Origin: Candidatus Woesearchaeota archaeon UBA525
Lineage (GTDB): Archaea; Nanobdellota; Nanobdellia; Woesearchaeales; UBA525
Direction of reading: 5' to 3'
NCBI GenBank assembly: GCA_002498125.1
Contig: DAGG01000029.1
Span: 898-64,897, forward strand
Length of the DNA stretch: 64,000 nt
Position numbers and translations under genes: made by a program. This document shows, in pieces, positions 11,333-53,247 of this stretch (its first letter is position 1; each line of letters begins with the position of its first letter). A model generated the notes under the pieces. The model did not search any database and was not told the origin of the DNA. It saw only the letters and a program-made list of their open reading frames with translations.

Positions 11333-11836
11333 TCAGCGGAACACTCCTTCATCCGGCAGCGCGAATTTCGCGTCCCTACGAGCCGAATCGTAGTCGAAAT
11401 GGCAGTGGACATCGTGCTCGTACTCATCGATGTCGATTCCTTGGCGCAGTATCGGCACAAGACCCACTGGAAGCGGCTTGTCCATGTAGCGATCCTCATT
11501 GCCGCAGAGCTCCACGAGGCGTTTGACAACAGGACGGAAGCCACTGTCTTCGTCATTCTCCTCGCCGAAATATGCCTTCAGCACATCGGGGGCTGTCGGA
11601 GGAGAGAATTGCGATGACCCGTTCCTTATGCCGGTGAGCATTCCATCCCTCCATTGGAACGTGTGCCCGCGGTACTCCACGCGGACCTCAATCGAATCAC
11701 CATCGCTTGGGAAATAGCCAGGATCGCGGAATGATTTGATAAGTTCGCCGTTGGCTGTGCGTCTCTCCGCATGATCCTCGCCGCTGTACCATATGTACAG
11801 GTCGCTTATTTTCGCATCGTTCCAGTGCTCTGCCAT
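11333..11836 (-). CDS. Hypothetical protein
   Basis: 167-aa ORF directly upstream of 10824..11315 on the same strand. Sits in a divergent promoter region with ychF. Confidence 0.45.
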   Translation of the reverse strand: MAEHWNDAKISDLYIWYSGEDHAERRTANGELIKSFRDPGYFPSDGDSIEVRVEYRGHTFQWRDGMLTGIRNGSSQFSPPTAPDVLKAYFGEENDEDSGFRPVVKRLVELCGNEDRYMDKPLPVGLVPILRQGIDIDEYEHDVHCHFDYDSARRDAKFALPDEGVFR

Positions 11837-11956
11837 CGTATCCCTCCAATCCAGTCGAAAATATCATACTTCATCATATTATATAAAGGTGCTTATCAGA
11901 AATATCAAGAAATCCTCCAGGAACACAGGAAAACGGAAAACTCTCCGACGGCAACA

Positions 11957-11966
11957 GGCTTATAAA
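11957..11966 (+). promoter_or_regulatory. TATA-like element (cttataaatc) upstream of the YchF-like GTPase gene
   Basis: A/T-rich box in the divergent intergenic region. About 75 nt upstream of the GTG start. Confidence 0.3.
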
Positions 11967-12038
11967 TCTCTGATAGGTCCCATCAAGTATGCCTGTGCCA
12001 GTCACTATCGCTGCGAACCTCCAATCACGAGGTGCCTC

Positions 12039-13232
12039 GTGCTCGTAGGAATAGTAGGAAAACCGTCTTGCGGCAAGTCCACGTTCTTCAAAGCGAGCAC
12101 GCTCGCTGAAGTGGATATCGCGAACTACCCCTTCACCACGATCAAACCGAATCACGCAGTAGGTTTCGTCAAGGTCGAGGACCCGGCGATACCGTTCGGC
12201 AAGAAGAGCATCCCGCGCTTCGGCTACGTCGCCGACAAGTGGCGCTTCGTGCCTGTCGACATGATTGACGTCGCAGGCCTCGTGCCTGGCGCACACCGCG
12301 GCGAAGGTATGGGAGCCCAGTTCCTCGGCGACCTGAACCAGGCGGACGCGCTCATCCACGTCATCGACGTGTCCGGAAGCGTGAACGAGCGCGGCGAGGC
12401 AGTACAGCCCCTGAGCTACGACCCAGCGAACGACATCGCATTCCTCGAGGAAGAGCTCGACTACTGGTACCTCGGCATCCTGAACAAGTCATGGGAGAAG
12501 CTGAGCCGCCAGGCGCAGATGGAGCACCAGGAGCCGTTCAAGGCTGTCGCCAAGCAGATGAGCGGCCTAGGCGTGGACGAAGACATGTCCAAGCGCGAGA
12601 TAGCGAAGCTCAGCCTCGACAAAAAGCACCTCCTCGACTGGACGCAGGATGACCTGCTTGCGCTCGCGCGATCCTTCCGCATCATCACCAAGCCCATGCT
12701 CATCGCAGCAAACAAGGTCGATGTCCCTGGCGCGAAGGCGAACTACGAACGACTCAAGGCCGCGTTCCCGCAGCACCGCATCGTGCCCTGCTCTGCCGAA
12801 GCAGAGCTCGCGCTGCGAGAAGCTGCCAAGCACAATCTCATCACGTACATCCCAGGTGAAAGTGATTTTGGAATAGTCGGGACGCTCTCAGAGAAGCAGG
12901 CTGCAGCGCTCAAGTTCATCAAGGAGAAGGTCCTCGCTGAGTTCGGATCGACGGGAGTGCAGGAGGTGCTGAACACAGCAGTCTTCAATCTCCTCCGGTA
13001 CAAGCCCATCTACCCCGGCGGCGTCGGCAAGCTTGAGGACTCAGAGGGCCGCATCATCCCAGACTGCTTCCTCATGAAGGAAAAAGCTACAGCGCTCGAT
13101 TTCGCCTACAAGCTCCACACCGACTTCGGCAAGAACTTCATCAAGGCAGTGAACGTCAGGACGAAGATGCCCGTCGGAAAAGACCACGTGCTGGAGCCTG
13201 GTTCTATCATCGAGATCATGGCGGGGAAATGA
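12039..13232 (+). CDS. ychF: YchF/OLA1-family (Obg-like) GTPase/ATPase with C-terminal TGS domain
   Basis: G1 motif VGIVGKPSCGKST and DVAGLV (G3). C-terminal TGS-like segment YPGG...IIEI. The start is taken as GTG at 12039, which gives a 397-aa protein typical of the family. The ORF track begins at 11793 with a non-homologous extension. Confidence 0.75.
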   Translation: MLVGIVGKPSCGKSTFFKASTLAEVDIANYPFTTIKPNHAVGFVKVEDPAIPFGKKSIPRFGYVADKWRFVPVDMIDVAGLVPGAHRGEGMGAQFLGDLNQADALIHVIDVSGSVNERGEAVQPLSYDPANDIAFLEEELDYWYLGILNKSWEKLSRQAQMEHQEPFKAVAKQMSGLGVDEDMSKREIAKLSLDKKHLLDWTQDDLLALARSFRIITKPMLIAANKVDVPGAKANYERLKAAFPQHRIVPCSAEAELALREAAKHNLITYIPGESDFGIVGTLSEKQAAALKFIKEKVLAEFGSTGVQEVLNTAVFNLLRYKPIYPGGVGKLEDSEGRIIPDCFLMKEKATALDFAYKLHTDFGKNFIKAVNVRTKMPVGKDHVLEPGSIIEIMAGK

Positions 13233-16171: not shown

Positions 16172-16987
16172 TCAGCGCGAACACCAGTTCCCGGAGAGCG
16201 TTCCGTCGGGGAACAATGTGAGCTTCTTTCCTGACGCATACATATCATGCGACTCCTCTGCCAGGAGCCGCACGCCATTCTCAGCAGCCCACATCCACAT
16301 CTGCGGAAGCTCCTCGGGGAGTGAATCATAGTCGAGTCGGTCATTGATATCCCGCAGCGGCCATGCCGAGATGCTGTCCGCACCGATTTCTCTAAGACGC
16401 GTGACAGACGCGACGAAGCTATCCAGCGTGCAGATAGTGGTCTTACCGAGTAGCAGGTTCGCGCGCATCGTGAGGCCTGCGTCGTGAATTCTTCCAATGA
16501 CATCGGCGAATGGCGGATAGCTCCTGACGCCATATACCTCTGCATTCCTCCTCTCATCAGTATCGTGGACTGTCACGTAGATGGTCGAGAGGCCGAGGCC
16601 GCGCCAGCGCGGCAGGTACTGTTCGCAGAACACCTTATCTTCGCCGATCCTTATGCCGTTAGAGTACAGGTTGATCGGCGAGTAAGCCATACCAGCGAGA
16701 TTGTGCGCGATGCCGAGGACCTTAGTGACTGATATCGGCGAGAGTGTTGGCTCGCCGCTGCTGCTCAGCGATAGCGATCGCGCTCCGCGCGCATAGCATG
16801 ACGCGAGTGTCTCGCGCACGATATCCTCCTCCACCTCGCCGTCCCTACGCGGAGCATACCTCCTATGGATGAGCCCGGCACAGTGGCTGCAGCGCGCATT
16901 GCACGCACCTGTGCCGACGAAGAGCGCGAGGCTGCTCAGCGCATCCCTAGCATGCACCTCTATTCCAACACTCTTCACTTCATACAT
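16172..16987 (-). CDS. Small radical-SAM enzyme (COG0602 QueE/NrdG/viperin-like), paralog B
   Basis: GACNARCSHC (CxxxCxxC) and SSSGEPT (GGEP-like). About 40% identical to the adjacent paralog. 13-nt overlap with the upstream gene. Confidence 0.7.
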   Translation of the reverse strand: MYEVKSVGIEVHARDALSSLALFVGTGACNARCSHCAGLIHRRYAPRRDGEVEEDIVRETLASCYARGARSLSLSSSGEPTLSPISVTKVLGIAHNLAGMAYSPINLYSNGIRIGEDKVFCEQYLPRWRGLGLSTIYVTVHDTDERRNAEVYGVRSYPPFADVIGRIHDAGLTMRANLLLGKTTICTLDSFVASVTRLREIGADSISAWPLRDINDRLDYDSLPEELPQMWMWAAENGVRLLAEESHDMYASGKKLTLFPDGTLSGNWCSR

Positions 16988-17841
16988 AACGCACCCTCTT
17001 TTATCCAGGAGTAAGCTACAGTCCCATCCTGGAAGATGACGAGCTGACGGACGAAGTCCTTCTTCGGATCGTGTTTCGTGACGTAGTCAGTGATACGCAG
17101 GATATTGCCTTTGTAGTCGTACACTCCGCCGCCCCAATCATGTCCGTGGCAGAGCTTCGCGTTCCTGTGCAACCATCGCCTGATGCCAAAAGTCCCTAGG
17201 CGCGATGGAGTGTACTCGTTCCTGGTGCCGTCGGGGTTGCCGACAGGCCAGGAGGTGATGTTATCGATGCCCTTGCTGATGAGCGTGTCAACAGACCGAG
17301 CGTACTCCGTAGCGTCATCCACTCCGCCCTTGCGTAGCAGCAGTGTCGCGCGCATCCCAAGACCATAGGACTTCACGTTCTCAGCAATATCCCCGAGGTC
17401 TGGGTAGTCCGGCAGGTTGTAAGCCCTGGCCTGTTCAGCCCTGTCGACGCTATGCACCGACACAGCGACGTTCGTGAGGCCGAGGTCCTTCCATGCCGGC
17501 AGGTTACGTTCGCAGTAGTCCTTGTCAGCGAGGAGTATGCCATTGGTGAAGAGGTTCACGTTCGGGAAGTACGCTCCCTCCTTGGCGCACTTGGTGTATA
17601 TCTCTAGCGCGCGCGTAAGCGCCTTTGGACTACAGGTGGGTTCGCCGCTGCTCGTGAGTGAGAGCGACCATCCGCCGTAGCGGGCGCAGAGCTTGATAGC
17701 GGCCTCGAGATTCTTGTCGTAGTTCGGGTTGGCTTTGGCATCGGGCCGAAGGTACTTTCCTGCGCAGAAGTCGCAGTCTGCGTTGCACGCGCCGCTACCC
17801 ACGAGCGCTGAGACGCTGTAGATCCTCTCTATGCATACCAT
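16975..17841 (-). CDS. Small radical-SAM enzyme (COG0602 QueE/NrdG/viperin-like), paralog A
   Basis: GACNADCDFC (CxxxCxxC) and TSSGEPT. 13-nt overlaps with both neighbouring genes, so it is operonic. Confidence 0.7.
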   Translation of the reverse strand: MVCIERIYSVSALVGSGACNADCDFCAGKYLRPDAKANPNYDKNLEAAIKLCARYGGWSLSLTSSGEPTCSPKALTRALEIYTKCAKEGAYFPNVNLFTNGILLADKDYCERNLPAWKDLGLTNVAVSVHSVDRAEQARAYNLPDYPDLGDIAENVKSYGLGMRATLLLRKGGVDDATEYARSVDTLISKGIDNITSWPVGNPDGTRNEYTPSRLGTFGIRRWLHRNAKLCHGHDWGGGVYDYKGNILRITDYVTKHDPKKDFVRQLVIFQDGTVAYSWIKEGALCMK

Positions 17842-18374
17842 CTCGCCACCTCCCGCAGCACGTGCTGCGCGCGTTCTTCCACGAAGGGTACAGTGATTAC
17901 CTTGAACCCGTAGTCTTCGTACGCCTTCCTGAGGTGCGCCGAAAGCAGCGCGCTCTCCTCAGGGGTCTCATCACGCGCTCCATCATTCTGGTAGAGGTGC
18001 GCAGGGACGGGATCGAGCAGGAACACACCTGCGTAATCAGCGGCTTTGCAGAGGCTGTGGAGCTCATCAGCCACCGGCGTCCCGAAGCGGCGGCAGTAGC
18101 CGATGTTGTCAACCAGGCCCCGGTCGAGGAAACTCGTCCCGTAGCAGCCGCGCTCAAGCTCTTGCTGCCTGACGTAGATGAGCCGCTGGAAAGCGGCGTT
18201 GTCGTTCTCAGGCAGGATGTAGGTCCGTCCCTGTTCCTTGCGCAGACGCTGCTCCTCTTTGATAGGACGCGCCGCCTCGTCGATGGTAGTGTAGCCGCGG
18301 CGCGCGAGCTCGCGCAGCAGTGTTGATTTTCCTGTACCCGGCCCGCCGGTGATGACGAACTTCTCAGTTACCAT
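17829..18374 (-). CDS. AAA_28-type P-loop ATPase / predicted nucleotide kinase
   Basis: ITGGPGTGKSTL Walker A at the N-terminus of a ~180-aa protein, typical of the AAA_28 (NadR-RNK-like) family. Confidence 0.65.
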   Translation of the reverse strand: MVTEKFVITGGPGTGKSTLLRELARRGYTTIDEAARPIKEEQRLRKEQGRTYILPENDNAAFQRLIYVRQQELERGCYGTSFLDRGLVDNIGYCRRFGTPVADELHSLCKAADYAGVFLLDPVPAHLYQNDGARDETPEESALLSAHLRKAYEDYGFKVITVPFVEERAQHVLREVARWYA

Positions 18375-18400
18375 AATAGTTATATAGTGTTGTAGTAATT

Positions 18401-19267
18401 ATGTTCATTACTAGCAAAAATATAGGCAGAGTGTTGCATATGCTTGACAAGAAGACCCGTGATGCCATCCTTGACTTCATCCGCATCAAGCCTCGGACAG
18501 TCCAGGAAGTAGCGCAGCATATCGACAGGAACTGGCGGACGGCAGAACGCTACGTGGACACCATCTCTACAGAGACGGGATTCATCGCCACGCGCACGTT
18601 CCGCGAGGGAACGCGCGGAGCATTGAAGATCGCGTACTGGAGCGCAATCAGCGGAAACACGGGGAGCGCTTACCAAGAACGGCTGCTCCAGCACATCCAA
18701 CAGGCGAAGCGGAAAGAGGAGTTCTCGCCTTTCGACATCTACCAGCTCGTGCCTGAGGCTGAGCGCGCAGCGCACGTGGAACGCAGCGAGTTCTCGACGC
18801 ATCCAGATATCATGTTCGACTCGCTCCTACTCAAGGCGCACCGCCAGGTGCTCTTCTTCTCAGGCAACCTCTCATGGATGGAGCTCGGACCGAACATGGA
18901 AGGAGTGCTTGATCAGCTCGCCAAGCGCGGGGTCACGATGAAGGTGCTCACACGGGTCGACATCACCTCGGAGGCGAACACCACGGCCTTCCTGGCGCTC
19001 AACGAGCGCTTCGGCCGCGATGTCGTCCAGATACGGCACTGCGAACAGCCGCTGCGTGCCATGATTATCGACGACAGCTTCGCGAGCATCAAGGAGGTCC
19101 TCTCGCCGGCAACATTCCGCGAGCTCAAGGAGAAGCAGTTCATATTCTACATCATCAGGAACGCCGAATGGATAGCGTGGCTGCAGAAGGTCTTCTGGCA
19201 CCTCTGGCAGCAGAGCATTGATGCACAGGCAAGGCTGGACGCGCTGCAGACCCTGAAGAAATCCTAA
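18401..19267 (+). CDS. wHTH transcriptional regulator (TrmB-like) with C-terminal effector domain
   Basis: N-terminal winged helix (DAILDFIRIKPRTVQEVAQHI). The start is possibly at the internal Met at 18440, with the TATA-like box listed above. Confidence 0.5.
   Translation: MFITSKNIGRVLHMLDKKTRDAILDFIRIKPRTVQEVAQHIDRNWRTAERYVDTISTETGFIATRTFREGTRGALKIAYWSAISGNTGSAYQERLLQHIQQAKRKEEFSPFDIYQLVPEAERAAHVERSEFSTHPDIMFDSLLLKAHRQVLFFSGNLSWMELGPNMEGVLDQLAKRGVTMKVLTRVDITSEANTTAFLALNERFGRDVVQIRHCEQPLRAMIIDDSFASIKEVLSPATFRELKEKQFIFYIIRNAEWIAWLQKVFWHLWQQSIDAQARLDALQTLKKS
18417..18424 (+). promoter_or_regulatory. TATA-like element (aaaatata) for the TrmB-like regulator gene
   Basis: A/T-rich box about 23-26 nt upstream of the internal ATG (MLDKK) at about 18440. 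Divergent promoter region, coordinates approximate. Confidence 0.35.
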
Positions 19268-21970: not shown

Positions 21971-22333
21971 CTACGTCGCCTTGGCGATGGCATAGACTTC
22001 GCCGGTATCGGGCCTGAGATATGCTAAGACTCTCGTGTTAAGGATACTGCCGTGACCGCCCATCTCCCTGACAAACTCATCGATTGCCTGCGAATTCCGG
22101 AACGTGAACCCCTTACGTTTCTTAGTCTCGTGGTCTTCGATGTCAAACCTGAGATCGAGGTAATCCTTCATCATCATAGTCTCGCGGATGACGGCGGTGC
22201 GTGCCTCGAGTTTCTTCTCCGAATACAAGGTCACTGGATTTTGATTCCCGTCGTCTTCGTGCGTATTAACGAAGTAGACATTGCTGCAGAGCGCTGGATC
22301 GAAGCCGTAGATAAACGGCATTGGAGGATTCAT
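21971..22333 (-). CDS. Hypothetical protein, last gene of the surface operon
   Basis: Its ATG overlaps the TGA of the upstream 946-aa gene (ATGA). The start is at MNPPMPFIYG. Confidence 0.4.
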   Translation of the reverse strand: MNPPMPFIYGFDPALCSNVYFVNTHEDDGNQNPVTLYSEKKLEARTAVIRETMMMKDYLDLRFDIEDHETKKRKGFTFRNSQAIDEFVREMGGHGSILNTRVLAYLRPDTGEVYAIAKAT

Positions 22334-25170
22334 ATCCCCCCTTCGAACGGCCTGCACATCTTGCATGGCACAAGACCTGCATTCACTGCCTCACGCTTGC
22401 TTGAGTAAGCGATACGCTTATGGCGCGGGATACGGCGGGCGACCATGCAGTATGGAGTGTGCACTGTGTTACCGTCCTTGCCACCGAGGTAGATGACCTC
22501 GTTCGGCTTCATGCCCGGCACAGAGAGCACATGCGGTGCAGGTGGCTGCGCTCCAACGGCGATGTTCACCGTCTGTCCACCGCCACGGAAGTCACGTATG
22601 ACTGTGCCGCGGTCAGTGCTATGGTCAGGGCCACGGATGGTCTCGACCTGGCGTCCACGTACAGGGACTATCGCGCGCGAGCGGTTCGACGTGCGAACAA
22701 CGTTGCGCTCAGGAGCACGGGCGACTATCCTGCCGATACGAGATTTACGCGCAGTAGTCTTACGCGGGGTCTTAGTAGTTTTAGTAGCAGTCTTAGTCGT
22801 AGTCTTGGCCTTGCGCACTGCCTTACGCGTCTTGCGTGTAGCGGGCACAATGACAAGAGTATTGTCAGCGAACGGCTTCTGTCTGTACTCCTTCACTGTG
22901 AGCACGATGAGGAACATCACGAGCAAGAGCAGGATAAGCTCGAAGACCACGATGTAGGAACACCATGCCTCGAGGCACTGACCGAAGGTCCAGACCTTGA
23001 CAGGGATGACCCGCACGATGAACACCGGCGAATCGGTGATACCGCCCTTGGCGTCGCTCGCTGTCACAACCATCGTGTTCTCGCCCGCGAAGTTGCGGTC
23101 AGGAACGAGCGTGAGCATGGAACCCTCAAGCTGCGCGCGCACGTCGCTTGGCTGTGTGATCGCATAGCTGAGAATGTCCTGGTCAGGATCCTCGAAATAC
23201 TGCTCGAGGTCGATGGTGCGTTCGGTGTTCTGGTACAGCTCTATTACCGTCGACACAGTCGTGTCCGCGACGCGCTCATAGCGCATCTCTGCGCTAGGCG
23301 GCCGCAGGAGCAGCATCGAAAGCATGAGCAGGACTGCGCCTGCAATGAGCGCAAACTTGATGAGTGCGAGCGTCTTAGGCGCCACTCCCTGCGCGAGGAA
23401 GGGATATCCTGCGTAGATTGCGATGAGCAATACTACTGCTGCGATGAGCAGTAGCGCGAGCAGGAGGACAAGCCATGCGCAGAACGTGAAGCTCGCGAGG
23501 AACGCGCCGAGCCACTCCAGGAAGCGGATGAGGAAATTGTCATCCTGGAGCTCGATGCCGACTGATTCCACGTAAGGTATGCTCTGCGTGGTGAATGTCG
23601 GCAGGACGATGTATCGTCCCCGCTCCTGCGTCGTCAGGTTCTCGAGCGGGATGATATGGATTGCGCGCTGATCTCCAGGCTGGAGCGTGATTTCCTGCTC
23701 CTGCACTGTGAAGAGCGTGCTCTCTGTCTCGATGGTGTAGACGCCGCCTTCGCTACCGGTGTGCTTCACGATGACCGGGATGACGGTCGCGTCATCCTTG
23801 ATCGATATCTCATCATCGTCGATTTGCACCATGTGGCAAGTGCGCTGCGTCTGGCTGTTGAATGTGACTGGCGCGCTCGCATTCACTTGCGGCTGGCCGG
23901 CAGGCCATACGCGCACGACCGCAGTGTGCTCCGCGTCTGTGCATGGCAGCGTCACGCGTAGTGGTACGTTGATGTTCTGCCGCGGCTCTACGCGGATTGA
24001 TGTCTCGTCGAGGGTGAAGATGCTCGGTCCCTCGACCTGGAGCTGGAAGACCTGACTGCGGTCGCCATCGTTGCGGACGTTGACGTAGAGGGTCTTGGCG
24101 CCGCAGCATGCGGTGAGTGGAGTAGTCAGTGTGACCTCAGGCTCGCTGCGGATCTCGAGCGCTGGAGCATAGCAGTTGGCCACATTGAGCGTGACATCAC
24201 GCTGCTTGCTCACGCCGCCGTAGCGGTCGTTCGATGAGATCGTCATCTCGTACTCTCCGACTGCAGGGTTGTACACAGCAAGCGTGGCGTTGCGCTCCTC
24301 TCCCGAGGCAAGCTCGAGGGAGTTGTCGAACGTAACGAAGTGCGGCGCATCGAGGTCCATGTAGACCACGTCTGACGCCGGAGCGTCATTGCGCACTGGG
24401 ACCGCTATGCGGGTATCAGTCCGAGCGCATACATCGATGCTCGTCGGGAGGTCTATGCTGTAGCCGTACTCGTTGGTGATCGTGATATCGCGCCAGACAG
24501 TGGTCCCATCGCCGCTCTTGCCTGCGAGGATGAAGGGTACTGTACGCGTGCCGTGCTCTGTGCAAGCGAAGCTGTAGATGACCTCCTGAGTGAACGACTC
24601 TCCCGGCAGGAGGCGGAACTCTGTGTCCTCAGCTTCGGGCTCGTACTGGCCGAACGAGAGGAGATAGTCCTCAGGGAATGTGCCGATGTTGCGAGCAGTG
24701 ACCTCGAAAGTGGCCGGGTCGCACAGACCGACGGTCTGTTTTGTCGGCGCAACGTCGAGCGCCGCAGTCTGGCATGCGTCGACGCGTATCGAGCGCTCGA
24801 TGCTTCTTGTGCGGCCGTAGCTGTTCGTGACAACTACATCATATGGGTGCGTTCCGCGGACGCTGCAGCTGTCCTCGACGTAGATGAGGACCTCTTCGAA
24901 GTGCTTGGGCGCAAGCTGGAAGTCCGGTCTCACGACCTTGATCCCACCAGGGTATGTGCTACGCACCTGGACGTGGAAGTCAGCGTAGAACTGGCCGACG
25001 TTCTCGACGATGATACGGTCGACCTTGGTCTCGCACGCGCAGAGCTTGAGCTGCTCGTTGTTAGGCGAAGCGGCGGTGAAGTCATTCGTGTACTTGTTCA
25101 CGATGAGCTCTGCGCTCACGCCTGTGCTGAGTATGAGGAACGCGATTATGAGTGTGAGTGCGCGGTTCAT
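22330..25170 (-). CDS. Large surface protein: signal peptide, CARDB-like repeats, TM region, juxtamembrane Ig-like domain, K/T-rich tail and C-terminal Ada-type Zn-binding domain
   Basis: Signal MNRALTLIIAFLILSTGVSA. Repeated beta-rich modules (e.g. VNVRNDGDRSQVFQLQVEG). Hydrophobic block around aa 545-615 and a second TM near aa 720. KTTKT-rich basic segment. C-terminal HTPYCMVARRIPRHKRIAYSSKREAVNAGLVPCKMCRP matches the Ada_Zn_binding consensus. Confidence 0.7.
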   Translation of the reverse strand: MNRALTLIIAFLILSTGVSAELIVNKYTNDFTAASPNNEQLKLCACETKVDRIIVENVGQFYADFHVQVRSTYPGGIKVVRPDFQLAPKHFEEVLIYVEDSCSVRGTHPYDVVVTNSYGRTRSIERSIRVDACQTAALDVAPTKQTVGLCDPATFEVTARNIGTFPEDYLLSFGQYEPEAEDTEFRLLPGESFTQEVIYSFACTEHGTRTVPFILAGKSGDGTTVWRDITITNEYGYSIDLPTSIDVCARTDTRIAVPVRNDAPASDVVYMDLDAPHFVTFDNSLELASGEERNATLAVYNPAVGEYEMTISSNDRYGGVSKQRDVTLNVANCYAPALEIRSEPEVTLTTPLTACCGAKTLYVNVRNDGDRSQVFQLQVEGPSIFTLDETSIRVEPRQNINVPLRVTLPCTDAEHTAVVRVWPAGQPQVNASAPVTFNSQTQRTCHMVQIDDDEISIKDDATVIPVIVKHTGSEGGVYTIETESTLFTVQEQEITLQPGDQRAIHIIPLENLTTQERGRYIVLPTFTTQSIPYVESVGIELQDDNFLIRFLEWLGAFLASFTFCAWLVLLLALLLIAAVVLLIAIYAGYPFLAQGVAPKTLALIKFALIAGAVLLMLSMLLLRPPSAEMRYERVADTTVSTVIELYQNTERTIDLEQYFEDPDQDILSYAITQPSDVRAQLEGSMLTLVPDRNFAGENTMVVTASDAKGGITDSPVFIVRVIPVKVWTFGQCLEAWCSYIVVFELILLLLVMFLIVLTVKEYRQKPFADNTLVIVPATRKTRKAVRKAKTTTKTATKTTKTPRKTTARKSRIGRIVARAPERNVVRTSNRSRAIVPVRGRQVETIRGPDHSTDRGTVIRDFRGGGQTVNIAVGAQPPAPHVLSVPGMKPNEVIYLGGKDGNTVHTPYCMVARRIPRHKRIAYSSKREAVNAGLVPCKMCRPFEGGI

Positions 25171-36219: not shown

Positions 36220-37977
36220 TCAGAACCGTATCTTTATCCCGCCGTAGATGGATTTGGAGTTCATCTCCTGCGTAAAGTCTGGGAGGACTATGTCGCGCTG
36301 CGTCTCGCCGTAGCGGATCTGCGGCCCGATGTCCACGCGTCCTGCGTTAATCATCCAGTCTGCGCCGACCTCCCATTCGTTCTGCACCTCGAGCTTTGCC
36401 CCCGCGATGTCCTCGCTCTCCTCTCCGAAGTGGTGTTTGTAGCTGCCGAAGAGGTCGAAGCTGTTCTCCTTGCCGAAAATAGTCATCGGGTTCTCCATAG
36501 TCAGCTGGCCAAAGGCCTTAGCTGCAGGGTTCTGGAATTTCACAGTCGCCGGATCACCAGGCCTGAAGTCTGGTGCGAAGGTGCGGTAGAACTCGTCGTG
36601 CACTTCGTAACCTGCGCCGACGCCGACGTGGCTCTTATCGAGATCGCCGATCATCGGACCGATGTAGATGCCTGCTGAGAGCGGGTCGAAGGCCTGCGTC
36701 ACGCCTGTCTTCGCAGTGTCGTTCTGTGTGATGCTCGCATCGATGTTCACGAACGGCTTGATGAAGAAATCAGTGAAGCTCTTCGTGACCTCAAGCTCGA
36801 GACCGGTTGTCTTGAGCTCATCAGCGAAGTACTGCTCGAAACGTGATGGAGCGAAGGTCTGCTGCTCGAGCTCTTTCATGAACGCCGTGATTGCGACAGC
36901 GAGGTCAGGCCTCTTGTACGCCGCCTCAAGTGCCATTGATGGACCCTCGAACTCCTGGAGGATATTAATAGTGTCACATGGCGCCTCGCAGTACTTGCTC
37001 TCGTTCGGAATGATAGTCCTGACATCCATGTTCGTCACATCGACGAGCGGAGTCAAGGACCACGGCTTTACACGGGGACGTTCAAATTCCACAGGTTGCG
37101 GGACTGGCGGCGGGACAAACACCTGCTCCGGCACGCAGTCAGGACACTCGATAGTACAGTCGCCAGTGCATACTTGTCCTGGCTTTAGTCCTGCTGTCCC
37201 GTCGCACTGCTCTCCTACCTGGTTGATAATCCCGTCGCCGCAGTAAGGCGCTGGTACCACAGGTGTAGGAGGGATGAGTTCCTGGACTGGCCGCTCGCAC
37301 GCGAGAAGCGTGAGGTCGAGGCCGTAGCTCGCGCATAGCTTCTTGTCAGGACCGCGCAGCACGACGAAGAGCTTCTCCTTCGTGAATATCGTGTCCTTGA
37401 CTTCATCATGCGTGATCACATAGTCCTTGACTGCTGCCCTGATGCGTGAGTCCTTTGACCATAGAGATACCTTATACCCCGCCTTCTTCTGCGCTGCAGT
37501 GAGTTTCGGCAGTCCTATCTCGAGCTTATCCTCGGGGTAGAGGCAGTACTCCTTGTTCGCTGTGAGGCGGTCGCACTCTCCAACGTCAACCTTGAACTGG
37601 TTGTACTGGCCATCTATGTATGTCGTAATCGGCGTGGGACCGATGAACTTGAGATTGGGGGGACAAGGGTTCTCGGCAGTGCAGTCCTCGAGCGTCCTTA
37701 CAGGAGTTGAGTTCTGGACTACTCGCACATTTAGCTTTGACGCGAGTGTCTCCTGCCGAGCAGGTTCCTTCTCGAACGAGAATCTCGCTGTGCTGTTCTG
37801 CACGACAGCGTTCTTCTCTGCGCGGATGAGCTCCACCTTCTCGCCCTTCTGCACTATCTTCGCGCCTGCGATGGGCGTTGGGGAGTGGGTCTGTGCCTGC
37901 AGCGGTTGCGTTTGCAACGCAGGGCTCAATGTCATTGAGATAAGAGAAGCGAGGGCTATGGTGGTGTTCGGTTTCAC
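36220..37977 (-). CDS. Secreted Cys-rich protein with beta-strand-rich C-terminal domain ending ...YGGIKIRF (OMP beta-barrel-like signature)
   Basis: N-terminal signal-like segment. CGDGIINQVGEQCDG...CTGDCTIECPDC Cys-rich module. The C-terminal ~250 aa show alternating hydrophobic/polar strands, are rich in G/Y/F/N, and end in a terminal Phe. Confidence 0.6.
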   Translation of the reverse strand: MKPNTTIALASLISMTLSPALQTQPLQAQTHSPTPIAGAKIVQKGEKVELIRAEKNAVVQNSTARFSFEKEPARQETLASKLNVRVVQNSTPVRTLEDCTAENPCPPNLKFIGPTPITTYIDGQYNQFKVDVGECDRLTANKEYCLYPEDKLEIGLPKLTAAQKKAGYKVSLWSKDSRIRAAVKDYVITHDEVKDTIFTKEKLFVVLRGPDKKLCASYGLDLTLLACERPVQELIPPTPVVPAPYCGDGIINQVGEQCDGTAGLKPGQVCTGDCTIECPDCVPEQVFVPPPVPQPVEFERPRVKPWSLTPLVDVTNMDVRTIIPNESKYCEAPCDTINILQEFEGPSMALEAAYKRPDLAVAITAFMKELEQQTFAPSRFEQYFADELKTTGLELEVTKSFTDFFIKPFVNIDASITQNDTAKTGVTQAFDPLSAGIYIGPMIGDLDKSHVGVGAGYEVHDEFYRTFAPDFRPGDPATVKFQNPAAKAFGQLTMENPMTIFGKENSFDLFGSYKHHFGEESEDIAGAKLEVQNEWEVGADWMINAGRVDIGPQIRYGETQRDIVLPDFTQEMNSKSIYGGIKIRF

Positions 37978-38092
37978 AGGGTTACCTCGGCCTCTGGAGT
38001 CAAATGTTCGCTATTTATGCATGAGTTGCGGACTGGCAAAAGAAGAGACTGAAAAATTGTCAGAAAAGAGATTGATAAGAGGAGGATGAAGA

Positions 38093-39796
38093 TTAGAAGC
38101 GGTAGTTGCCGAAGACACCGAGTCCGATGTCCGAGCTCTTGAAAGGGGTGCCATCGATGAAGGTGGAATCCTCCTCGCCGAACTTGACGCGGCCTGATAC
38201 GCCGAAGGGGTTCTTGCTCTCCGGGTTGAATATCCACTCCACGCCGGCCTCGCCGTTGAAGACGTAGGAGTCGTCGAGTATCTCCTTCCAGTTGGTCGCG
38301 CGCTGCGTCTGCGGAGCCATTACCCTGCCGGTGCCGAAGATGCGGACGTGATCATCTACAGTGTAGAGCTGGAACGACGCTTCACCTTTGAACATGCGCT
38401 CTGTGACACCGTCGCTGCGGCGGTCATTTGTCGTAGAGTTGTTCGGCCTGCCGAAGTTCATTCGCTGCGCGCCATATCCTGCCTTGATCTTCAGATGACT
38501 GCCGTCCTGGTAGCCGATCATGCCAATGAGATTGGCATAGCCGTCGACGCTCCTGTAGCGCATGACAGTATTGTCATCTGAAGGACCGCGCATACCAAGT
38601 CCCTCGCCGAACGTCACGCTCGAGTACGAGCCATCCAGACCAAGCCCGATGCGGGCCCGTGCGTGGCCAAACGTCTGCTCGTAGTTGAAACTCGGGCTGA
38701 ATGCCGTAATCGTGTTCTCGAGCGTGTTGTGGTAGCGGTTGCCTGTCCCGTTGTCACCGCGGCTCGATGCCGCCTGGATTGAGAAGAGCGTGTTGTCATC
38801 TGTGAACTTGAACTGCGCCATGAGCTGGGATCCACTATAGGTCTCCTCTTCGGGGATGAAGACCTCCTTGTTGTTGCGCGTCACCCAGTAGCCAGTCTGG
38901 AAATTGTGCTCGAACGATCCCAAGCCGAGGTTGAACTCCCTATTACCGGCGTTCCTGAGCGGCTTCTCGCGATGCCTACGCCACAGGGTGCGTTCTTCAC
39001 GTACAACGTCTGCCGGCACATCATCTCCTGCCGTCGCCTCTGCGACCACAGTGACTGTCTCAGAAGGGGTCCTCACCGTCGCCTCTGCCCGCGCTGCTGA
39101 GGAACTGCCCGTCGCTGTCGCCTCTGCGGAGACTTCAGTGACATAGTTGCAGTCGCGCGCGGTTATTGTCGCACCGATGTTGCGCGCGTCAACGCGTTTG
39201 CCATTCCTATCACGCAGGACGAGCGCAAAGTTCTCCTTAGGGAGCTTGAGTGTGTAAGTGTTATACGAACCGCTGGTATCGGTGTCGATTGTCTTGAAGT
39301 ACTGGACGTACTTGCGGTCATTGGCGCTGAGCGCGCCACTGCGGATCTCTACGCCATCAATGGCACCATTATCTACGAGCCAGCTGAACTTAGGTCTGCC
39401 TGCCATCTCGTAGCGGAGAGTATATCCTGCGCGCGCCTGCGCATCAGTGAGGTCCGGTAGCACGAGCTTTACCTGATCGCCAGGAGTGCAGAACCCGCCG
39501 ATTGTGCCCATGCCGTAATCGACGATGCGGTCGAGCGATGGATCACGTCTCTCGCGAATGACCTGTCGCGCAGGGGCCTCCTTGACTTTTCTTACGACCT
39601 GTTTCTCAACAGGAGCGACAGGTGTGCACGGCGATACTGCCGCCTCGCCGCAAACTGGCTTGGCTTCGCGCACGAATGGTCTGACAATCGCTTGCTTTGC
39701 GTCATGCATCCACTGACGGAGTCCTGCCTCTGCGTTAGGCGCAGCGAGGCTCAAGAGCCCGGCCGCGATGATCGCTTTCGTGAGATTCTTGTTCAT
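38093..39796 (-). CDS. Secreted protein, paralog of 36220..37977, C-terminal beta-rich domain ending ...LGVFGNYRF
   Basis: Sec signal MNKNLTKAIIAAGLLSLAAPNAEA. Shares the motif LP.LT.AQ..AGY with its paralog. The C-terminal ~300 aa have an alternating pattern and a terminal aromatic-R-F. Confidence 0.6.
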   Translation of the reverse strand: MNKNLTKAIIAAGLLSLAAPNAEAGLRQWMHDAKQAIVRPFVREAKPVCGEAAVSPCTPVAPVEKQVVRKVKEAPARQVIRERRDPSLDRIVDYGMGTIGGFCTPGDQVKLVLPDLTDAQARAGYTLRYEMAGRPKFSWLVDNGAIDGVEIRSGALSANDRKYVQYFKTIDTDTSGSYNTYTLKLPKENFALVLRDRNGKRVDARNIGATITARDCNYVTEVSAEATATGSSSAARAEATVRTPSETVTVVAEATAGDDVPADVVREERTLWRRHREKPLRNAGNREFNLGLGSFEHNFQTGYWVTRNNKEVFIPEEETYSGSQLMAQFKFTDDNTLFSIQAASSRGDNGTGNRYHNTLENTITAFSPSFNYEQTFGHARARIGLGLDGSYSSVTFGEGLGMRGPSDDNTVMRYRSVDGYANLIGMIGYQDGSHLKIKAGYGAQRMNFGRPNNSTTNDRRSDGVTERMFKGEASFQLYTVDDHVRIFGTGRVMAPQTQRATNWKEILDDSYVFNGEAGVEWIFNPESKNPFGVSGRVKFGEEDSTFIDGTPFKSSDIGLGVFGNYRF

Positions 39797-39804
39797 GTGT
39801 TCAC

Positions 39805-42384
39805 CTAGTAATTAAACTGGACATCATTCTCGAGGAGCTTCCCTATCACGCTCTCTTCCATGGCCTGTGCCTGGAACGCGTACTCATACATGATACGTTC
39901 GAAGAGAGGCTTGTCATCATTGTGTATCGCGGTCTTCGCCCTACCTATGCGCATGATCTGGTCGCGATCATAGCCATCCGGCGTGCCGCAGGTCTTCTTC
40001 TCGTCGCAGTACTTATGCAGGTCCTGGACGAGAACCAGGCCTCTCTCCACATACTGCATCCTCTCAGCATCTGAGGAGAATCGCTTGTTCTGGATACCAT
40101 CGAACATCACTTTCACTTCTCCGATGAGCCTCTTCTCCTCAGGAGAGAGAGTGTACTCGATGCCCTGATTATCACGGCCGGTCGTACCCTGCGGGCCGTT
40201 GTACTCAGATGTTACAGGTGCTTCAGCAGTCGTCTTCGGACTGTAATCGAATATAGGCGGTGACGTAGAGCTCTCCGTAGGAGCGACCTTGACAGACGCG
40301 GCTGCCACGGAATTGTCCGCGCTTGCGTACGCATGCACGTCTACGACGGGCTTCGGCTGCTCGTACACGATCTCATCGAGCGTCGTGCTCGGGATATCCC
40401 ATGAAGGGTCGTCACCAGGAACGTTGTACGAAACCGGCGGCTGCGCTGGAGGCTCCAGAATCTCAGGGACGCGCGCGTCCGGAATCGGAGACTGCTTGTA
40501 CTCCAATGGCTGCGCTGCAGGAGTCCTGTCAGGAACTGGAGGAGCTTTGTACTCCGGCACAGGCTCCGATGCTGCAGGCGCTTTGCGCTCAGGCACCGAT
40601 TCCTGAGAAGATGAGTTATACACTGGAGCGGGCGACGTGGCCAGCGCAGTGACGATGAACCGTATAGGCACCTTCACGCTCTGCACGATCGTGCCGTCAC
40701 TATCACGGGCAGCGATGTCGTACACGAGGATCTTATCCTGCTTTAACTCGCCGTAGGATATGGTGAGCTGACCATCGATGGCGCTCGCCAGCGCGATGTC
40801 CTCTGCAGTGTTGAACGTCGGCGAGAGCGATGCGCTCACTGCCCGCTTGTCTTGCGGCAGATCGAGCGTGAACGAATCCCCGGCGCTCTTGAGGTAGACC
40901 GTGGTTATCGCATGCTTGCTCCACAATCCTTCTAGCTCTGTCGCCATCACTCCGCGCACCTTAACGTTCGTGCCTTCGAGCGTGTTGTCGAGTGTGAAGA
41001 CGGGGTCGCCGCGGGGAAGTCCCTTTTGCCTTGTGCTGAGCGTGATGCGCTGCGCGATGCCGTCAGAGATGACAACCGCTGCAGGGTTGAGTAGGTAGTC
41101 GCCTGATGTGTTGAACCTGCTCTTGTACACAGGCTTCGATGCGCCGTTATACTCAACAGGAGGTTCTGCTCGCGCAGGAGACGTGGTGGAAGGCACGTCT
41201 TTCGACGGGCTTGTGGAAGCAGCGCTTGCAGGCGTACCGCTTGCTGACGAGTTGCTTGCCGATGCACCGGAAGGAGTATAGGACGCTGAGTCAGCACCTG
41301 CTGATGCGCCGGCGGCCGCTCCCGAAGCTGTGCCGCCATCGATGATTTTCTCGAGTGGAGGAGTGAGAAGATCAGGTGACGCTGAGGAAGGTTCTGCACG
41401 CGGCAGAGGTGTGATGGTCTCGGCCGGAGTGGTCTGCGTGAGCGCAGTGTCGAGTGCCGTACCGAAAGCAGTATCAGTCGGTGATGGAGAATATGGATTG
41501 GGTGCAGTGCTTGTGAGCACTGTATCGGTGAGTGTGGTATCTGTGATTGCTGTATCGAGCGCGGTGCTTGCTGGCGCGCGACGGTAGCCAGACATCGTTC
41601 CCGTAGGGACGACGCTCTTGTCTTCCGGCGTGGCGCGCTCTAATCCGCTGGCAGGGCGCTGGACCTGACGGCTCACTTCAGCCCTGCGCTGCTCGTACAC
41701 AACAGATCTCTTCTGGAGTTCGGCAATGCCGTAGCCTGCGGCGATGAAGCCAGCTCCAATAGCAGCACCGACGAGGACAATCTTGCCTTTCCTCTTCAAA
41801 CCATCGTTGCTGAAATCCGGCTTATGCACCCAGTCGGGCTTGTGCACGTACAACCACTCGCGCGAACTGCGCGTCCGCTCCTTGAGGACATTGCCGGTGT
41901 TGGAGAATGCGTTCCTAGTGCCTGCGCGCATCTTCTCGTCGGCATTGTCCATCGTGATACGGTACTTTGAATATGCATGCTTCGCCCCTGCGCCTGTTGC
42001 GATAAATGGTTTCTTCATGGCAGAACTGTAACGCTTCAACCGCCCCGGCGATTTCTCTGCTTCGCCAACAGGCGTTTCAGGAAGCGCTACTCCGGCAGCC
42101 GCTACATCAGAGAGGTGGTCTTCAGCAGTCGGTTCAGGCGTGCCTGCAATCTCATCGAGACGCTCATCTATCGCCTTATCGAGATCCTGGTCCTCAATGC
42201 GCACCCGCCGCGTCTCGAACTCATCAAGTGTCTCAGCCACAGAGTTCTCCTGTGCAGAAGCACCAGTATGCTCAGACACCATATCTGATTCTGAGAGTTG
42301 CTCAATGTCCTCATTTCTAGGATTCGTAGGATTGTCGTCAGGCATATGCGTCCTCAAGTCTGGCGCGGTCCATTCTTCTCCCAT
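39805..42384 (-). CDS. Giant single-pass membrane surface protein with acidic N-terminal (cytoplasmic) region, S/T/P/A-rich stalk and Pro-rich PxEYK-type repeats
   Basis: One TM helix (KIVLVGAAIGAGFIAAGYGIAEL) at about aa 195-217. Long low-complexity Ser/Thr/Ala/Pro region, a likely O-glycosylated stalk. Globular C-terminal domain. TATA-like gtgatttaaataag sits 27-34 nt upstream. Confidence 0.6.
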   Translation of the reverse strand: MGEEWTAPDLRTHMPDDNPTNPRNEDIEQLSESDMVSEHTGASAQENSVAETLDEFETRRVRIEDQDLDKAIDERLDEIAGTPEPTAEDHLSDVAAAGVALPETPVGEAEKSPGRLKRYSSAMKKPFIATGAGAKHAYSKYRITMDNADEKMRAGTRNAFSNTGNVLKERTRSSREWLYVHKPDWVHKPDFSNDGLKRKGKIVLVGAAIGAGFIAAGYGIAELQKRSVVYEQRRAEVSRQVQRPASGLERATPEDKSVVPTGTMSGYRRAPASTALDTAITDTTLTDTVLTSTAPNPYSPSPTDTAFGTALDTALTQTTPAETITPLPRAEPSSASPDLLTPPLEKIIDGGTASGAAAGASAGADSASYTPSGASASNSSASGTPASAASTSPSKDVPSTTSPARAEPPVEYNGASKPVYKSRFNTSGDYLLNPAAVVISDGIAQRITLSTRQKGLPRGDPVFTLDNTLEGTNVKVRGVMATELEGLWSKHAITTVYLKSAGDSFTLDLPQDKRAVSASLSPTFNTAEDIALASAIDGQLTISYGELKQDKILVYDIAARDSDGTIVQSVKVPIRFIVTALATSPAPVYNSSSQESVPERKAPAASEPVPEYKAPPVPDRTPAAQPLEYKQSPIPDARVPEILEPPAQPPVSYNVPGDDPSWDIPSTTLDEIVYEQPKPVVDVHAYASADNSVAAASVKVAPTESSTSPPIFDYSPKTTAEAPVTSEYNGPQGTTGRDNQGIEYTLSPEEKRLIGEVKVMFDGIQNKRFSSDAERMQYVERGLVLVQDLHKYCDEKKTCGTPDGYDRDQIMRIGRAKTAIHNDDKPLFERIMYEYAFQAQAMEESVIGKLLENDVQFNY

Positions 42385-52885: not shown

Positions 52886-53199
52886 GGGCGGGAAGTCGAC
52901 TCCCGCTGTATAGTGAGAAAAGTCCTGGCACCCCCGCAAGGGAGCCGCAAGGCGGCCGCTCGTGGAAGCGAGGAGGGGAAACCCTACGGCAACGAACGGA
53001 CAGAAACGGACCAACCGTCGCAGGGATGATTCCCGGCAAGGTCTGGCGACAGGCCCTTGAAGGATGACGTCGCGACGGACGCGGATGAAACGAACGTCCC
53101 GGCCGGTGCAAGGCCAGTATGGCCGCTCAGTTGAATGTCGATGGTTGTGGTCCGAGGTCAGACCCCGGCGCAGCAGCAGAACCAGGCTTACTCCCGCCC
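52886..53199 (+). ncRNA. rnpB: RNase P RNA (archaeal type A-like)
   Basis: 5' GGGCGGGAAGTC...GAGAAAAGTCCTGGC (P4/CR-I, GNAAAGUCC). 3' ACAGAACCAGGCTTA (CR-V) then ACTCCCGCCC, which pairs with the 5' end (P1). Internal GGGAAACCC and AAGGCGGCCGC helices. The ORFs over this region are spurious. Confidence 0.75.
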
Positions 53200-53247
53200 G
53201 ACACCTCATCATCAAGCTTTAAGTATCGAAGCGGAATCCCCTCGCGT

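Follow-up and report, generated by a model that had tools for sequence, protein, structure and literature searches.

This work deals with an operon of two paralogous radical-SAM (S-adenosylmethionine) enzyme genes and one kinase-like gene, carried by a contig of Candidatus Woesearchaeota archaeon UBA525 (assembly GCA_002498125.1, contig DAGG01000029.1, positions 898 to 64,897; this whole stretch of 64,000 nucleotides is called here the window). The three open reading frames (ORFs), designated K, rSAM-A (A) and rSAM-B (B), lie on the minus strand at exactly the coordinates first noted in a sequence-only reading of the window, and a fourth gene, W, is transcribed divergently from them (Table 1). 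Even on a modest reading, A represents a gene family belonging to the core of Nanoarchaeota and of many lineages of the candidate phyla radiation (CPR), and the locus is plausibly a housekeeping module of nucleotide metabolism, probably concerned with DNA precursors, which tiny symbiotic archaea share with related bacteria and with viruses of both.

Table 1. Genes and control region of the radical-SAM operon (positions in the window)
Feature	Positions	Strand	Description
K	17829..18374	-	181 aa; AAA_28 P-loop (NadR-kinase-like) nucleotide/nucleoside kinase; first gene of the operon
rSAM-A (A)	16975..17841	-	288 aa; core radical-SAM enzyme
rSAM-B (B)	16172..16987	-	271 aa; paralog of A
W	18440..19267	+	275 aa; divergently transcribed TrmB-family regulator (assigned at fold level)
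K-W divergent control region	18375..18439	.	65 bp, AT-rich; TTATATA/AAAATATA TATA-like boxes; putative promoter, from sequence

Gene structure and family membership

Contiguous genes of the operon overlap by 13 nt at both the K/A (17829..17841) and A/B (16975..16987) junctions, and the translational coupling claimed in the sequence-only reading is upheld. Both overlaps are dual-coding: ATGGTATGCATAG is common to the stop of K and the start of A, and ATGTATGAAGTGA encodes the C-terminal LCMK* of A plus the initial MYEV of B. The 13-nt A/B overlap was seen again in at least seven related loci, the start of B falling 854 nt after the start of A, and the MYEV start is also found in B proteins from several lineages. 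With 39% identity across 200 aa (E 1e-40), A and B are paralogs, as had been claimed on the basis of ~40% identity. Their cluster and SAM motifs take the form G-x-G-A-C-N-A-x-C-x-(F/H)-C-A-G, then SSGEPT (GSGACNADCDFCAG and TSSGEPT in A, GTGACNARCSHCAG and SSSGEPT in B), and are invariant across 35 aligned A and B sequences. Scores against Pfam Radical_SAM PF04055 (37.5 bits for A, 37.6 for B, cut-off 29.5) place both proteins in the radical-SAM superfamily. Next to the CNxxCxFC cluster motif and the SSGEPT SAM motif, A features a conserved C-terminal beta domain (CHGHxWGGGVYDY...RQLVxFQDGTVAYSW...GALCMK). B keeps the cluster and SAM motifs, has no CHGH...GGG insert, and terminates with WC(N).

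K is a member of Pfam AAA_28 (115.8 bits, cut-off 27, profile positions 1-157 of 164), and its top PDB sequence match is, weakly, guanylate kinase (E 0.011). The ORF of W is readable from 18401, but homologs favor the start at 18440, and the 65-bp AT-rich divergent region therefore remains. No Pfam match was found for W, and its homologs all carry the label 'hypothetical'. In the AlphaFold2 (AF2) model (predicted local distance difference test score, pLDDT, 89) W is predicted to consist of a winged helix, a coiled coil and a phospholipase D (PLD)-like C-domain. The top Foldseek matches are TrmBL2 5bpd (E 7e-10) and TrmB 3qph (E 8e-7), and the C-domain resembles the PLD-fold Nuc/Zucchini proteins. 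The winged-helix N-domain and the PLD-like C-domain assign W to the TrmB family at fold level only. That the genes are real is supported by the number of homologs in the database, 592 for A, 273 for B and 959 for W.

By profile comparison, A and B are outside every curated family tested. The top NCBIfam matches of the two proteins are MoaA (21-24 bits, cut-off 284), TrsS (23 bits, cut-off 490) and viperin. The NCBIfam viperin model NF038283 gives 21.8 bits for A and 20.3 for B against a cut-off of 180, with alignments limited to the N-terminal core, and the PADLOC pVip models give 15-17 bits. K in turn matches PADLOC VakA weakly (20 bits, P-loop only). Membership of pVip, QueE, NrdG, MoaA, PqqE, HxsC and other families was considered for A and B and rejected, every score being far under cut-off. 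The sequence-only reading had located the two enzymes either in COG0602 (QueE/NrdG) or in the neighborhood of viperin. The placement in COG0602 fails: the QueE profile TIGR03963 gives 12.5 bits for B (cut-off 260) and no match for A, and the NrdG profile is absent among NCBIfam matches of A and B at E<0.1. By profile search A and B are therefore neither QueE nor NrdG, roles which the same reading had doubted. The other half of the placement holds at the level of structure, where A lies in the neighborhood of viperin and MoaA.

PDB searches by sequence, with a single protein or a profile, returned the generic radical-SAM core only (PqqE, AbmM, type-2 biotin synthase). The AF2 model of A (pLDDT 80) has its best fold matches in MoaA (E 8e-12 to 4e-11, template modeling (TM) score 0.63-0.66), followed by fungal viperin-like enzymes (E 3e-9 and 1e-8), further on by SkfB, EpeE, BlsE and HydE, and lower down by AbmM. 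The top six PDB fold matches are all proteins binding nucleoside triphosphates, GTP for MoaA and CTP for the viperin-like enzymes, and BlsE and AbmM are nucleoside enzymes. Spore photoproduct lyase and PflA are absent from the top 50 fold matches, and a search of BFVD retrieved generic viral radical-SAM proteins only. In MoaA three C-terminal cysteines bind a second [4Fe-4S] cluster. In the 35 aligned sequences two cysteines (C231, C286) are conserved toward the C-terminus of A and one toward that of B, so the three-cysteine motif, and with it this hallmark of MoaA, is missing in both.

Distribution and genomic context

A is spread over hundreds of Nanoarchaeota (Woesearchaeales/Pacearchaeales). 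The best 120 of the 592 homologs are 73-81% identical to A and nearly all exactly 288 aa long, and those with taxon names are Nanoarchaeota, Woesearchaeota, Pacearchaeota or Nanoarchaeia. Homologs of B and W show lower identities (50-60% and 49-69%, respectively). Judging from these values, A is more strongly constrained than the surrounding genes, which argues against recent spread or transfer, and for a central function. Homologs of A and B are annotated as 'radical SAM protein' or by generic COG names only; some JGI (Joint Genome Institute) labels in the family read 'organic radical activating enzyme' or 'PFL-activating enzyme'.

The wider family was searched in a protein library clustered at 50% identity. 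A-type sequences fall there into few clusters (64, 46, 45 and 43% identity). B-type clusters rank next, their alignment to A being limited to the first 200-230 residues. A third set, group C, includes many proteins of ~290 aa, 27-33% identical to A and aligned end to end, which share the C-terminal motifs of A (HG..VYD..G...RQL..F.DG...YSW..GA). In an alignment of A and group C (alignment A3) the invariant columns include, besides the cluster and SAM motifs, two arginines and one tryptophan, consistent with an anionic, aromatic ligand. Weak NCBIfam matches of the members of this alignment are most commonly to MoaA (33/34) and viperin (32/34); NrdG2 is matched weakly by 17 of the 34, mostly group C proteins, at best with E 1.4e-8. 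Group C, too, is without an NCBIfam or PHROG model of its own, the PHROG matches being to generic radical-SAM families only. The C-terminal tail of A (residues 279-288, W-I-K-E-G-A-L-C-M-K, window ~16975..17004) is flexible in the model (pLDDT <50). Its glycine is conserved in A and group C (W-x-Y-x-G-A-x-L-L), and missing in B, which ends W-C-N. A protein of 666 aa (P0414; contigs of 3.7-8.3 kb) joins the radical-SAM domain of group C to a C-terminal region of ~370 aa, featuring a SFSKPYG sequence which resembles the motif of the pyridoxal phosphate (PLP)-binding lysine of class I/II aminotransferases. This fusion hints that some family members may yield a keto intermediate.

The context of A was surveyed in 60 loci from species-representative genomes, plus loci from three look-ups; ORFs were called and clustered, and 58 non-redundant loci with A were obtained, to which the counts given here refer. 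Genes in the related loci were called by a simple longest-ORF script, and some starts are too long; counts of neighbors are minimum values, as many of the contigs are short. In the order conserved among archaea, divergent W is followed by K, in some loci by a CYTH triphosphatase gene, and finally by A and B. The most constant archaeal partner of A is W, overlooked in the first reading, which is found divergently upstream in 33 loci. B is immediately downstream of A in 29, and K upstream of A in 13, plus three in which AAA_28 and CYTH are fused. Other genes recurring near A encode the CYTH triphosphatase (10 loci), a metallophosphoesterase (11 loci) and a 167-aa protein without Pfam match (7 loci). 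The place of K may be taken by a thymidylate-kinase-like gene (L014/L016) or, in a viral locus (L071), by an AAA_33 kinase. The sequence-only reading had spoken of a tandem duplication of the radical-SAM gene. The survey reveals, instead of a local duplication, an old conserved pair, adjacent in half of the loci and unlinked in at least two genomes (L064, L065), where B is not beside A and a B-like gene resides on another contig of the same genome. Nor do the ABC exporter and the 187/145-aa proteins encoded nearby, once regarded as potential partners, accompany A elsewhere: they are singletons or rare, and the ABC family occurs in three loci, at unrelated positions.

Archaeal neighbors of A encode aminoacyl-tRNA synthetases, ribosomal proteins, topoisomerase, TBP and MCM, and are not defense genes. 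In a census of 146 flanking genes, among which RtcB, GatA/B and ribosomal protein L15e, none recurs more than twice; dCTP deaminase, aspartate carbamoyltransferase, HD and Nudix genes were each found twice. The enrichment in defense islands proposed as a check of the antiviral hypothesis was not seen in this survey, the neighbors being housekeeping genes and the distribution not the sporadic one of defense islands. Several contigs of metagenome-assembled genomes carry the labels 'Methanosarcinales' or 'Pseudomonadota', which clash with gene content, and are mis-binned. The 'Methanosarcinales' loci host the W-K-A-B module of the Nanoarchaeota type; in a locus labeled Pseudomonadota (L050) the large ORFs adjoining A look by eye like phage proteins of the terminase/portal type.

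Thirteen A loci are bacterial or phage-like. The CPR loci are genuinely bacterial, since DnaE, GatA/B and SecA are encoded nearby; as an example, Pol III alpha, GatA/GatB, MgtC and DegV surround A in two Collierbacteria loci (L054, L056). B is missing beside A in most CPR loci. In 10 of them the sole conserved neighbor of A is NrdR, a protein of 151-172 aa with Zn_ribbon_NrdR and ATP-cone domains (TIGR00244, 62-73 bits), whose gene is mostly divergent from A, and co-directional in two loci. These loci are labeled Collierbacteria, Dojkabacteria, Paceibacterota, Moraniibacteriota, two unclassified bacteria and one 'Parvarchaeota'. In two Patescibacteria-labeled loci (L039:108-755 and L049:9213-9911) the position of W or NrdR is taken by a divergent winged-helix protein with a C-terminal Nudix domain, which may be a third type of regulator, possibly nucleotide-sensing. 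In a rough neighbor-joining tree of A the NrdR-linked genes occupy at least four separate positions, two of them nested in the archaeal W-linked clade, and such a scattered distribution speaks for a maintained association.

NrdR is an ATP/dATP-sensing repressor of ribonucleotide reductase (RNR) genes, and binds paired boxes, acaCwAtATaTwGtg, separated by whole helical turns (PMC4009431). The core CWATATATWG, chosen post hoc, was searched with one mismatch allowed in the 200 bp upstream of genes, other upstream regions of the same loci serving as controls, and was found upstream of A in 6/10 loci vs 9/167 controls (Fisher p 2e-5). Palindromes resembling NrdR boxes thus occur between nrdR and A in CPR. 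One locus (L029) has two good boxes 42 bp apart, that is four helical turns; weaker pairs spaced 41-43 bp occur in four others. Neither the family, nor a link between radical-SAM enzymes and NrdR, is described in the literature searched, in which no account of the arrangement was found either, in line with the sequence-only reading, which had taken it as undescribed.

Further contexts connect A to nucleotides. In two loci (L014/L016) a single operon includes the thymidylate-kinase-like gene, a third radical-SAM gene, dCTP deaminase and A; in the second of these, B follows A, and W lies divergently upstream. The third radical-SAM protein (L014:8272-9991, L016:8107-9850) measures 239-245 aa and gives weak matches to MoaA and NrdG2. 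On a 523-kb bacterial contig an A-like gene (46% identity) is flanked by the genes of a HIT hydrolase and of a dGTPase-like HD protein, and two HAD hydrolases, adenylosuccinate synthetase, dCMP deaminase, Nudix and CYTH are encoded within 8 kb of it. No canonical RNR is encoded within ~10 kb of A in ~75 related loci, and the ten largest ORFs of the window include none either. As already stated in the sequence-only reading, neither RNR nor QueC/QueD/FolE genes are near the operon in the window, and the ~75 related loci yielded none.

Viruses carry the family as well. Fourteen viral loci with A (59-71% identity) were found in IMG/VR, within phage-like gene arrays, and 7/14 also carry B; in the viral locus L071 mentioned above the AAA_33 kinase follows B. 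In a 99-kb viral contig (L077:8328-13414) a family-B DNA polymerase (PolB) is encoded in two pieces, one of 557 aa with the exonuclease/N-terminal region and one of 368 aa with the C-terminal region, and A, B and a 222-aa gene of unknown function lie between the halves. Group C genes are located in phage replication modules, and the surroundings of A or group C genes repeatedly include genes for adenylosuccinate synthetase and for IMPDH-family proteins (L076, L079, L082). In a T4-like phage contig (L082:5530-12249; gp32, UvsX-like, Apyc1) the group C gene overlaps by 4 nt an adenylosuccinate-synthetase (PurA/PurZ-like) gene, and IMPDH-family, phosphoribosyltransferase and HD genes are close to it.

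Proposed function and competing explanations

With a probability of about 0.6, the locus is a housekeeping nucleotide-metabolism module, and not a defense system, in which an uncharacterized radical-SAM family acts on the sugar of a nucleotide and contributes to nucleotide or deoxynucleotide supply. The description of A and B as paralogous, cluster-bearing radical-SAM enzymes beside an AAA_28 kinase-like gene is confirmed, and the nucleotide substrate proposed in the sequence-only reading was a sensible guess, suggested by the fold neighbors of A, by the neighboring genes and by the invariant arginines and tryptophan. According to the mechanism considered most likely, A would bind a nucleoside phosphate, its 5'-deoxyadenosyl radical would abstract a hydrogen from the ribose, and a dehydration or a reduction-type change would take place on the sugar. 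We infer that A and B cooperate, and that K and W take part in the process. B, an older paralog, is probably a partner or accessory subunit of A in archaea; since most CPR bacteria carry A alone, A apparently can work without it. The AAA_28 kinase and, in sister genomes, the CYTH triphosphatase would set the phosphorylation state of substrate or product, and the TrmB-like W would control the operon.

The likeliest candidate for the specific reaction is a SAM-dependent deoxynucleotide formation, that is an RNR-like 2'-deoxygenation, the product of which would feed the path dCTP -> dUTP -> dTTP. The guess, which we hold as tentative and rather doubtful, comes from the pairing with NrdR, the operon with dCTP deaminase and thymidylate-kinase-like genes, the viral replication context, and the precedent of ribose dehydration by viperin. 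In its full form, A, aided by B in archaea, would be a SAM-dependent ribonucleotide 2'-deoxygenase, and ultra-small CPR bacteria, the Nanoarchaeota and the viruses of these organisms would use a route independent of the three RNR classes, placed under the control of NrdR in CPR; so extended, the idea is unlikely to be correct. To our knowledge, RNR is regarded as the sole de novo source of DNA building blocks. A is therefore a candidate either for a new nucleotide-salvage step or for an RNR-independent deoxynucleotide route, in organisms with a poorly understood nucleotide economy, and likely regulators of the family, W and NrdR, can be pointed out. The family would be categorically new only if the deoxynucleotide hypothesis were true.

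Several considerations weigh against the above interpretation. The case for a nucleotide substrate comes solely from fold resemblance and neighbors, and the consumption of one SAM per deoxynucleotide would be expensive. The A-B module is loose, as half of the loci have no adjacent B, and many lack K or CYTH. The statistic on NrdR boxes refers to a motif chosen post hoc and to AT-rich regions, and three of the 10 loci are close relatives; the boxes may moreover serve the autoregulation of nrdR alone. In some bacteria nrdR adjoins unrelated genes (ribD in E. coli), and adjacency alone is thus a weak argument. Finally, the phage replication-module context and the P0414 fusion fit modification of DNA or nucleotides equally well.

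The main rival, although we consider it improbable, is indeed a modification reaction, either on DNA or on nucleotides to be incorporated into it. A, possibly with B, would modify or repair DNA or RNA, or make a non-canonical nucleotide for DNA, the kinase activating the target. Group C and viral A genes reside in replication modules together with PolB, PolA, SSB, helicases and exonucleases, in archaea topoisomerase I is often encoded close to A, and the aminotransferase-like region of P0414 would suit the same purpose. A parallel is offered by phages that hypermodify thymidine, in which radical-SAM, PLP-enzyme and P-loop kinase genes lie close to that of the DNA polymerase (PMC5889632). Yet no tblastn match of A was found in 50,697 phage records, a set which should include isolate hypermodifying phages (group C sequences match two 735-kb uncultured phages only), no glycosylase/transferase partner (aGPT-Pplase, DpdA) was seen in A loci, and spore photoproduct lyase is not among the 50 closest folds. 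That A is paired with NrdR, dCTP deaminase and nucleotide hydrolases suggests rather the free nucleotide pool.

The same pairing with NrdR in CPR would be accounted for if A and/or B were activases, installing the glycyl radical on a class III RNR, or on another glycyl-radical enzyme, encoded elsewhere. The weak NrdG2 matches in half of the A3 members and the activating-enzyme labels given by JGI go in this direction. However, activases are normally encoded beside their targets, and neither NrdD nor any other glycyl-radical enzyme was found within ~10 kb in ~75 loci. A and B do not match the NrdG or PflA profiles at E<0.1, PflA is outside the top 50 folds, and A exceeds typical activases in length and possesses a conserved C-terminal domain of substrate type. 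An activase function is accordingly quite improbable.

The sequence-only reading had favored a viperin-like antiviral cassette, in which the kinase would supply the nucleoside triphosphate and A and B would make a chain-terminating ddh-nucleotide. The presence of viperin-like enzymes among the best folds, the weak viperin and pVip matches, the adjacent kinase and the faint resemblance of the latter to VakA speak for this hypothesis. Context largely refutes it, and little credit can be given to it now: scores of 20-22 bits are far from the cut-off of 180; in Nanoarchaeota A is almost universal, conserved vertically and under extreme constraint, at 73-81% identity, amid housekeeping neighbors; viruses themselves carry A and B; and control by NrdR would be odd for a defense gene. 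Known biosynthetic routes, A being a MoaA-like GTP 3',8-cyclase for molybdopterin or a QueE-like 7-deazapurine synthase, are the least credible explanation, because the MoaA fold, the commonest weak profile match and a GTP cyclohydrolase I gene near one viral locus are outweighed by the scores (MoaA 21-24 bits vs 284, QueE 12.5 vs 260), by the lack of the three C-terminal cysteines in A and B, and by the absence of MoaC/MoaB and QueC/QueD among the clustered or Pfam-scanned genes of related loci.

Other ORFs of the window deserve mention. An ORF of 946 aa (22330..25170, minus strand) exhibits, by eye, a signal-like N-terminus, several hydrophobic, putatively membrane-spanning stretches, a basic K/R/T-rich region and a C-terminal cysteine motif, features in which it recalls the large surface proteins often encountered in DPANN. 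An Obg-like GTPase of the YGR210/YchF type (MMR_HSR1, YGR210-like_G4, TGS) is encoded at 11793..13232 (plus strand); its ~80-aa N-terminal extension has an odd composition, and translation probably begins at a more downstream position. Four large ORFs (585, 567, 859 and 600 aa), located at 36220..42384 (minus strand) and 53119..54921 (plus strand), have no Pfam match at E<=1e-5.

Comparison with known systems

W shares with TrmB and TrmBL2 the winged helix, the coiled coil and the PLD-like C-domain of its predicted model, but differs from them in lacking a Pfam match at the sequence level. The systems of phage thymidine hypermodification (M6 gp53, SP10 gp185) similarly join a radical-SAM enzyme and a P-loop kinase near a viral DNA polymerase. 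In contrast, A has no tblastn counterpart among phage records, no aGPT-Pplase genes were seen near it, and it is mainly a cellular core gene.

MoaA is the closest match of A by fold (E 8e-12, TM 0.65), has a similar size, and shares the CNxxCx(F/Y)C motif and the GEPT and TNG-type SAM motifs; its substrate is a nucleoside triphosphate. However, the hidden Markov model (HMM) score of A is 12-fold under the cut-off, the C-terminal cysteines of the auxiliary cluster are missing, no MoaC/molybdopterin context surrounds the gene, and A has a conserved C-terminal beta domain of its own.

Viperin and pVip, single-cluster enzymes of ~280 aa like A, supply the second-best folds. They act on the ribose of nucleoside triphosphates, sometimes beside a nucleotide kinase, and the radical dehydration of ribose carried out by viperin may be the nearest chemical model for A. 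Differences reside in the failure of A to match the corresponding HMMs, in its housekeeping context and strong conservation, in the paralogous partner, and in the link to NrdR in bacteria.

The class III RNR (NrdD/NrdG, under NrdR) resembles the system described here for its anaerobic SAM/Fe-S radical chemistry tied to deoxynucleotide supply, and in CPR A occupies the position of an NrdR-target gene. Yet no NrdD-like protein is encoded nearby, and A is not NrdG by sequence or fold. A, if making deoxynucleotides, would do so directly.

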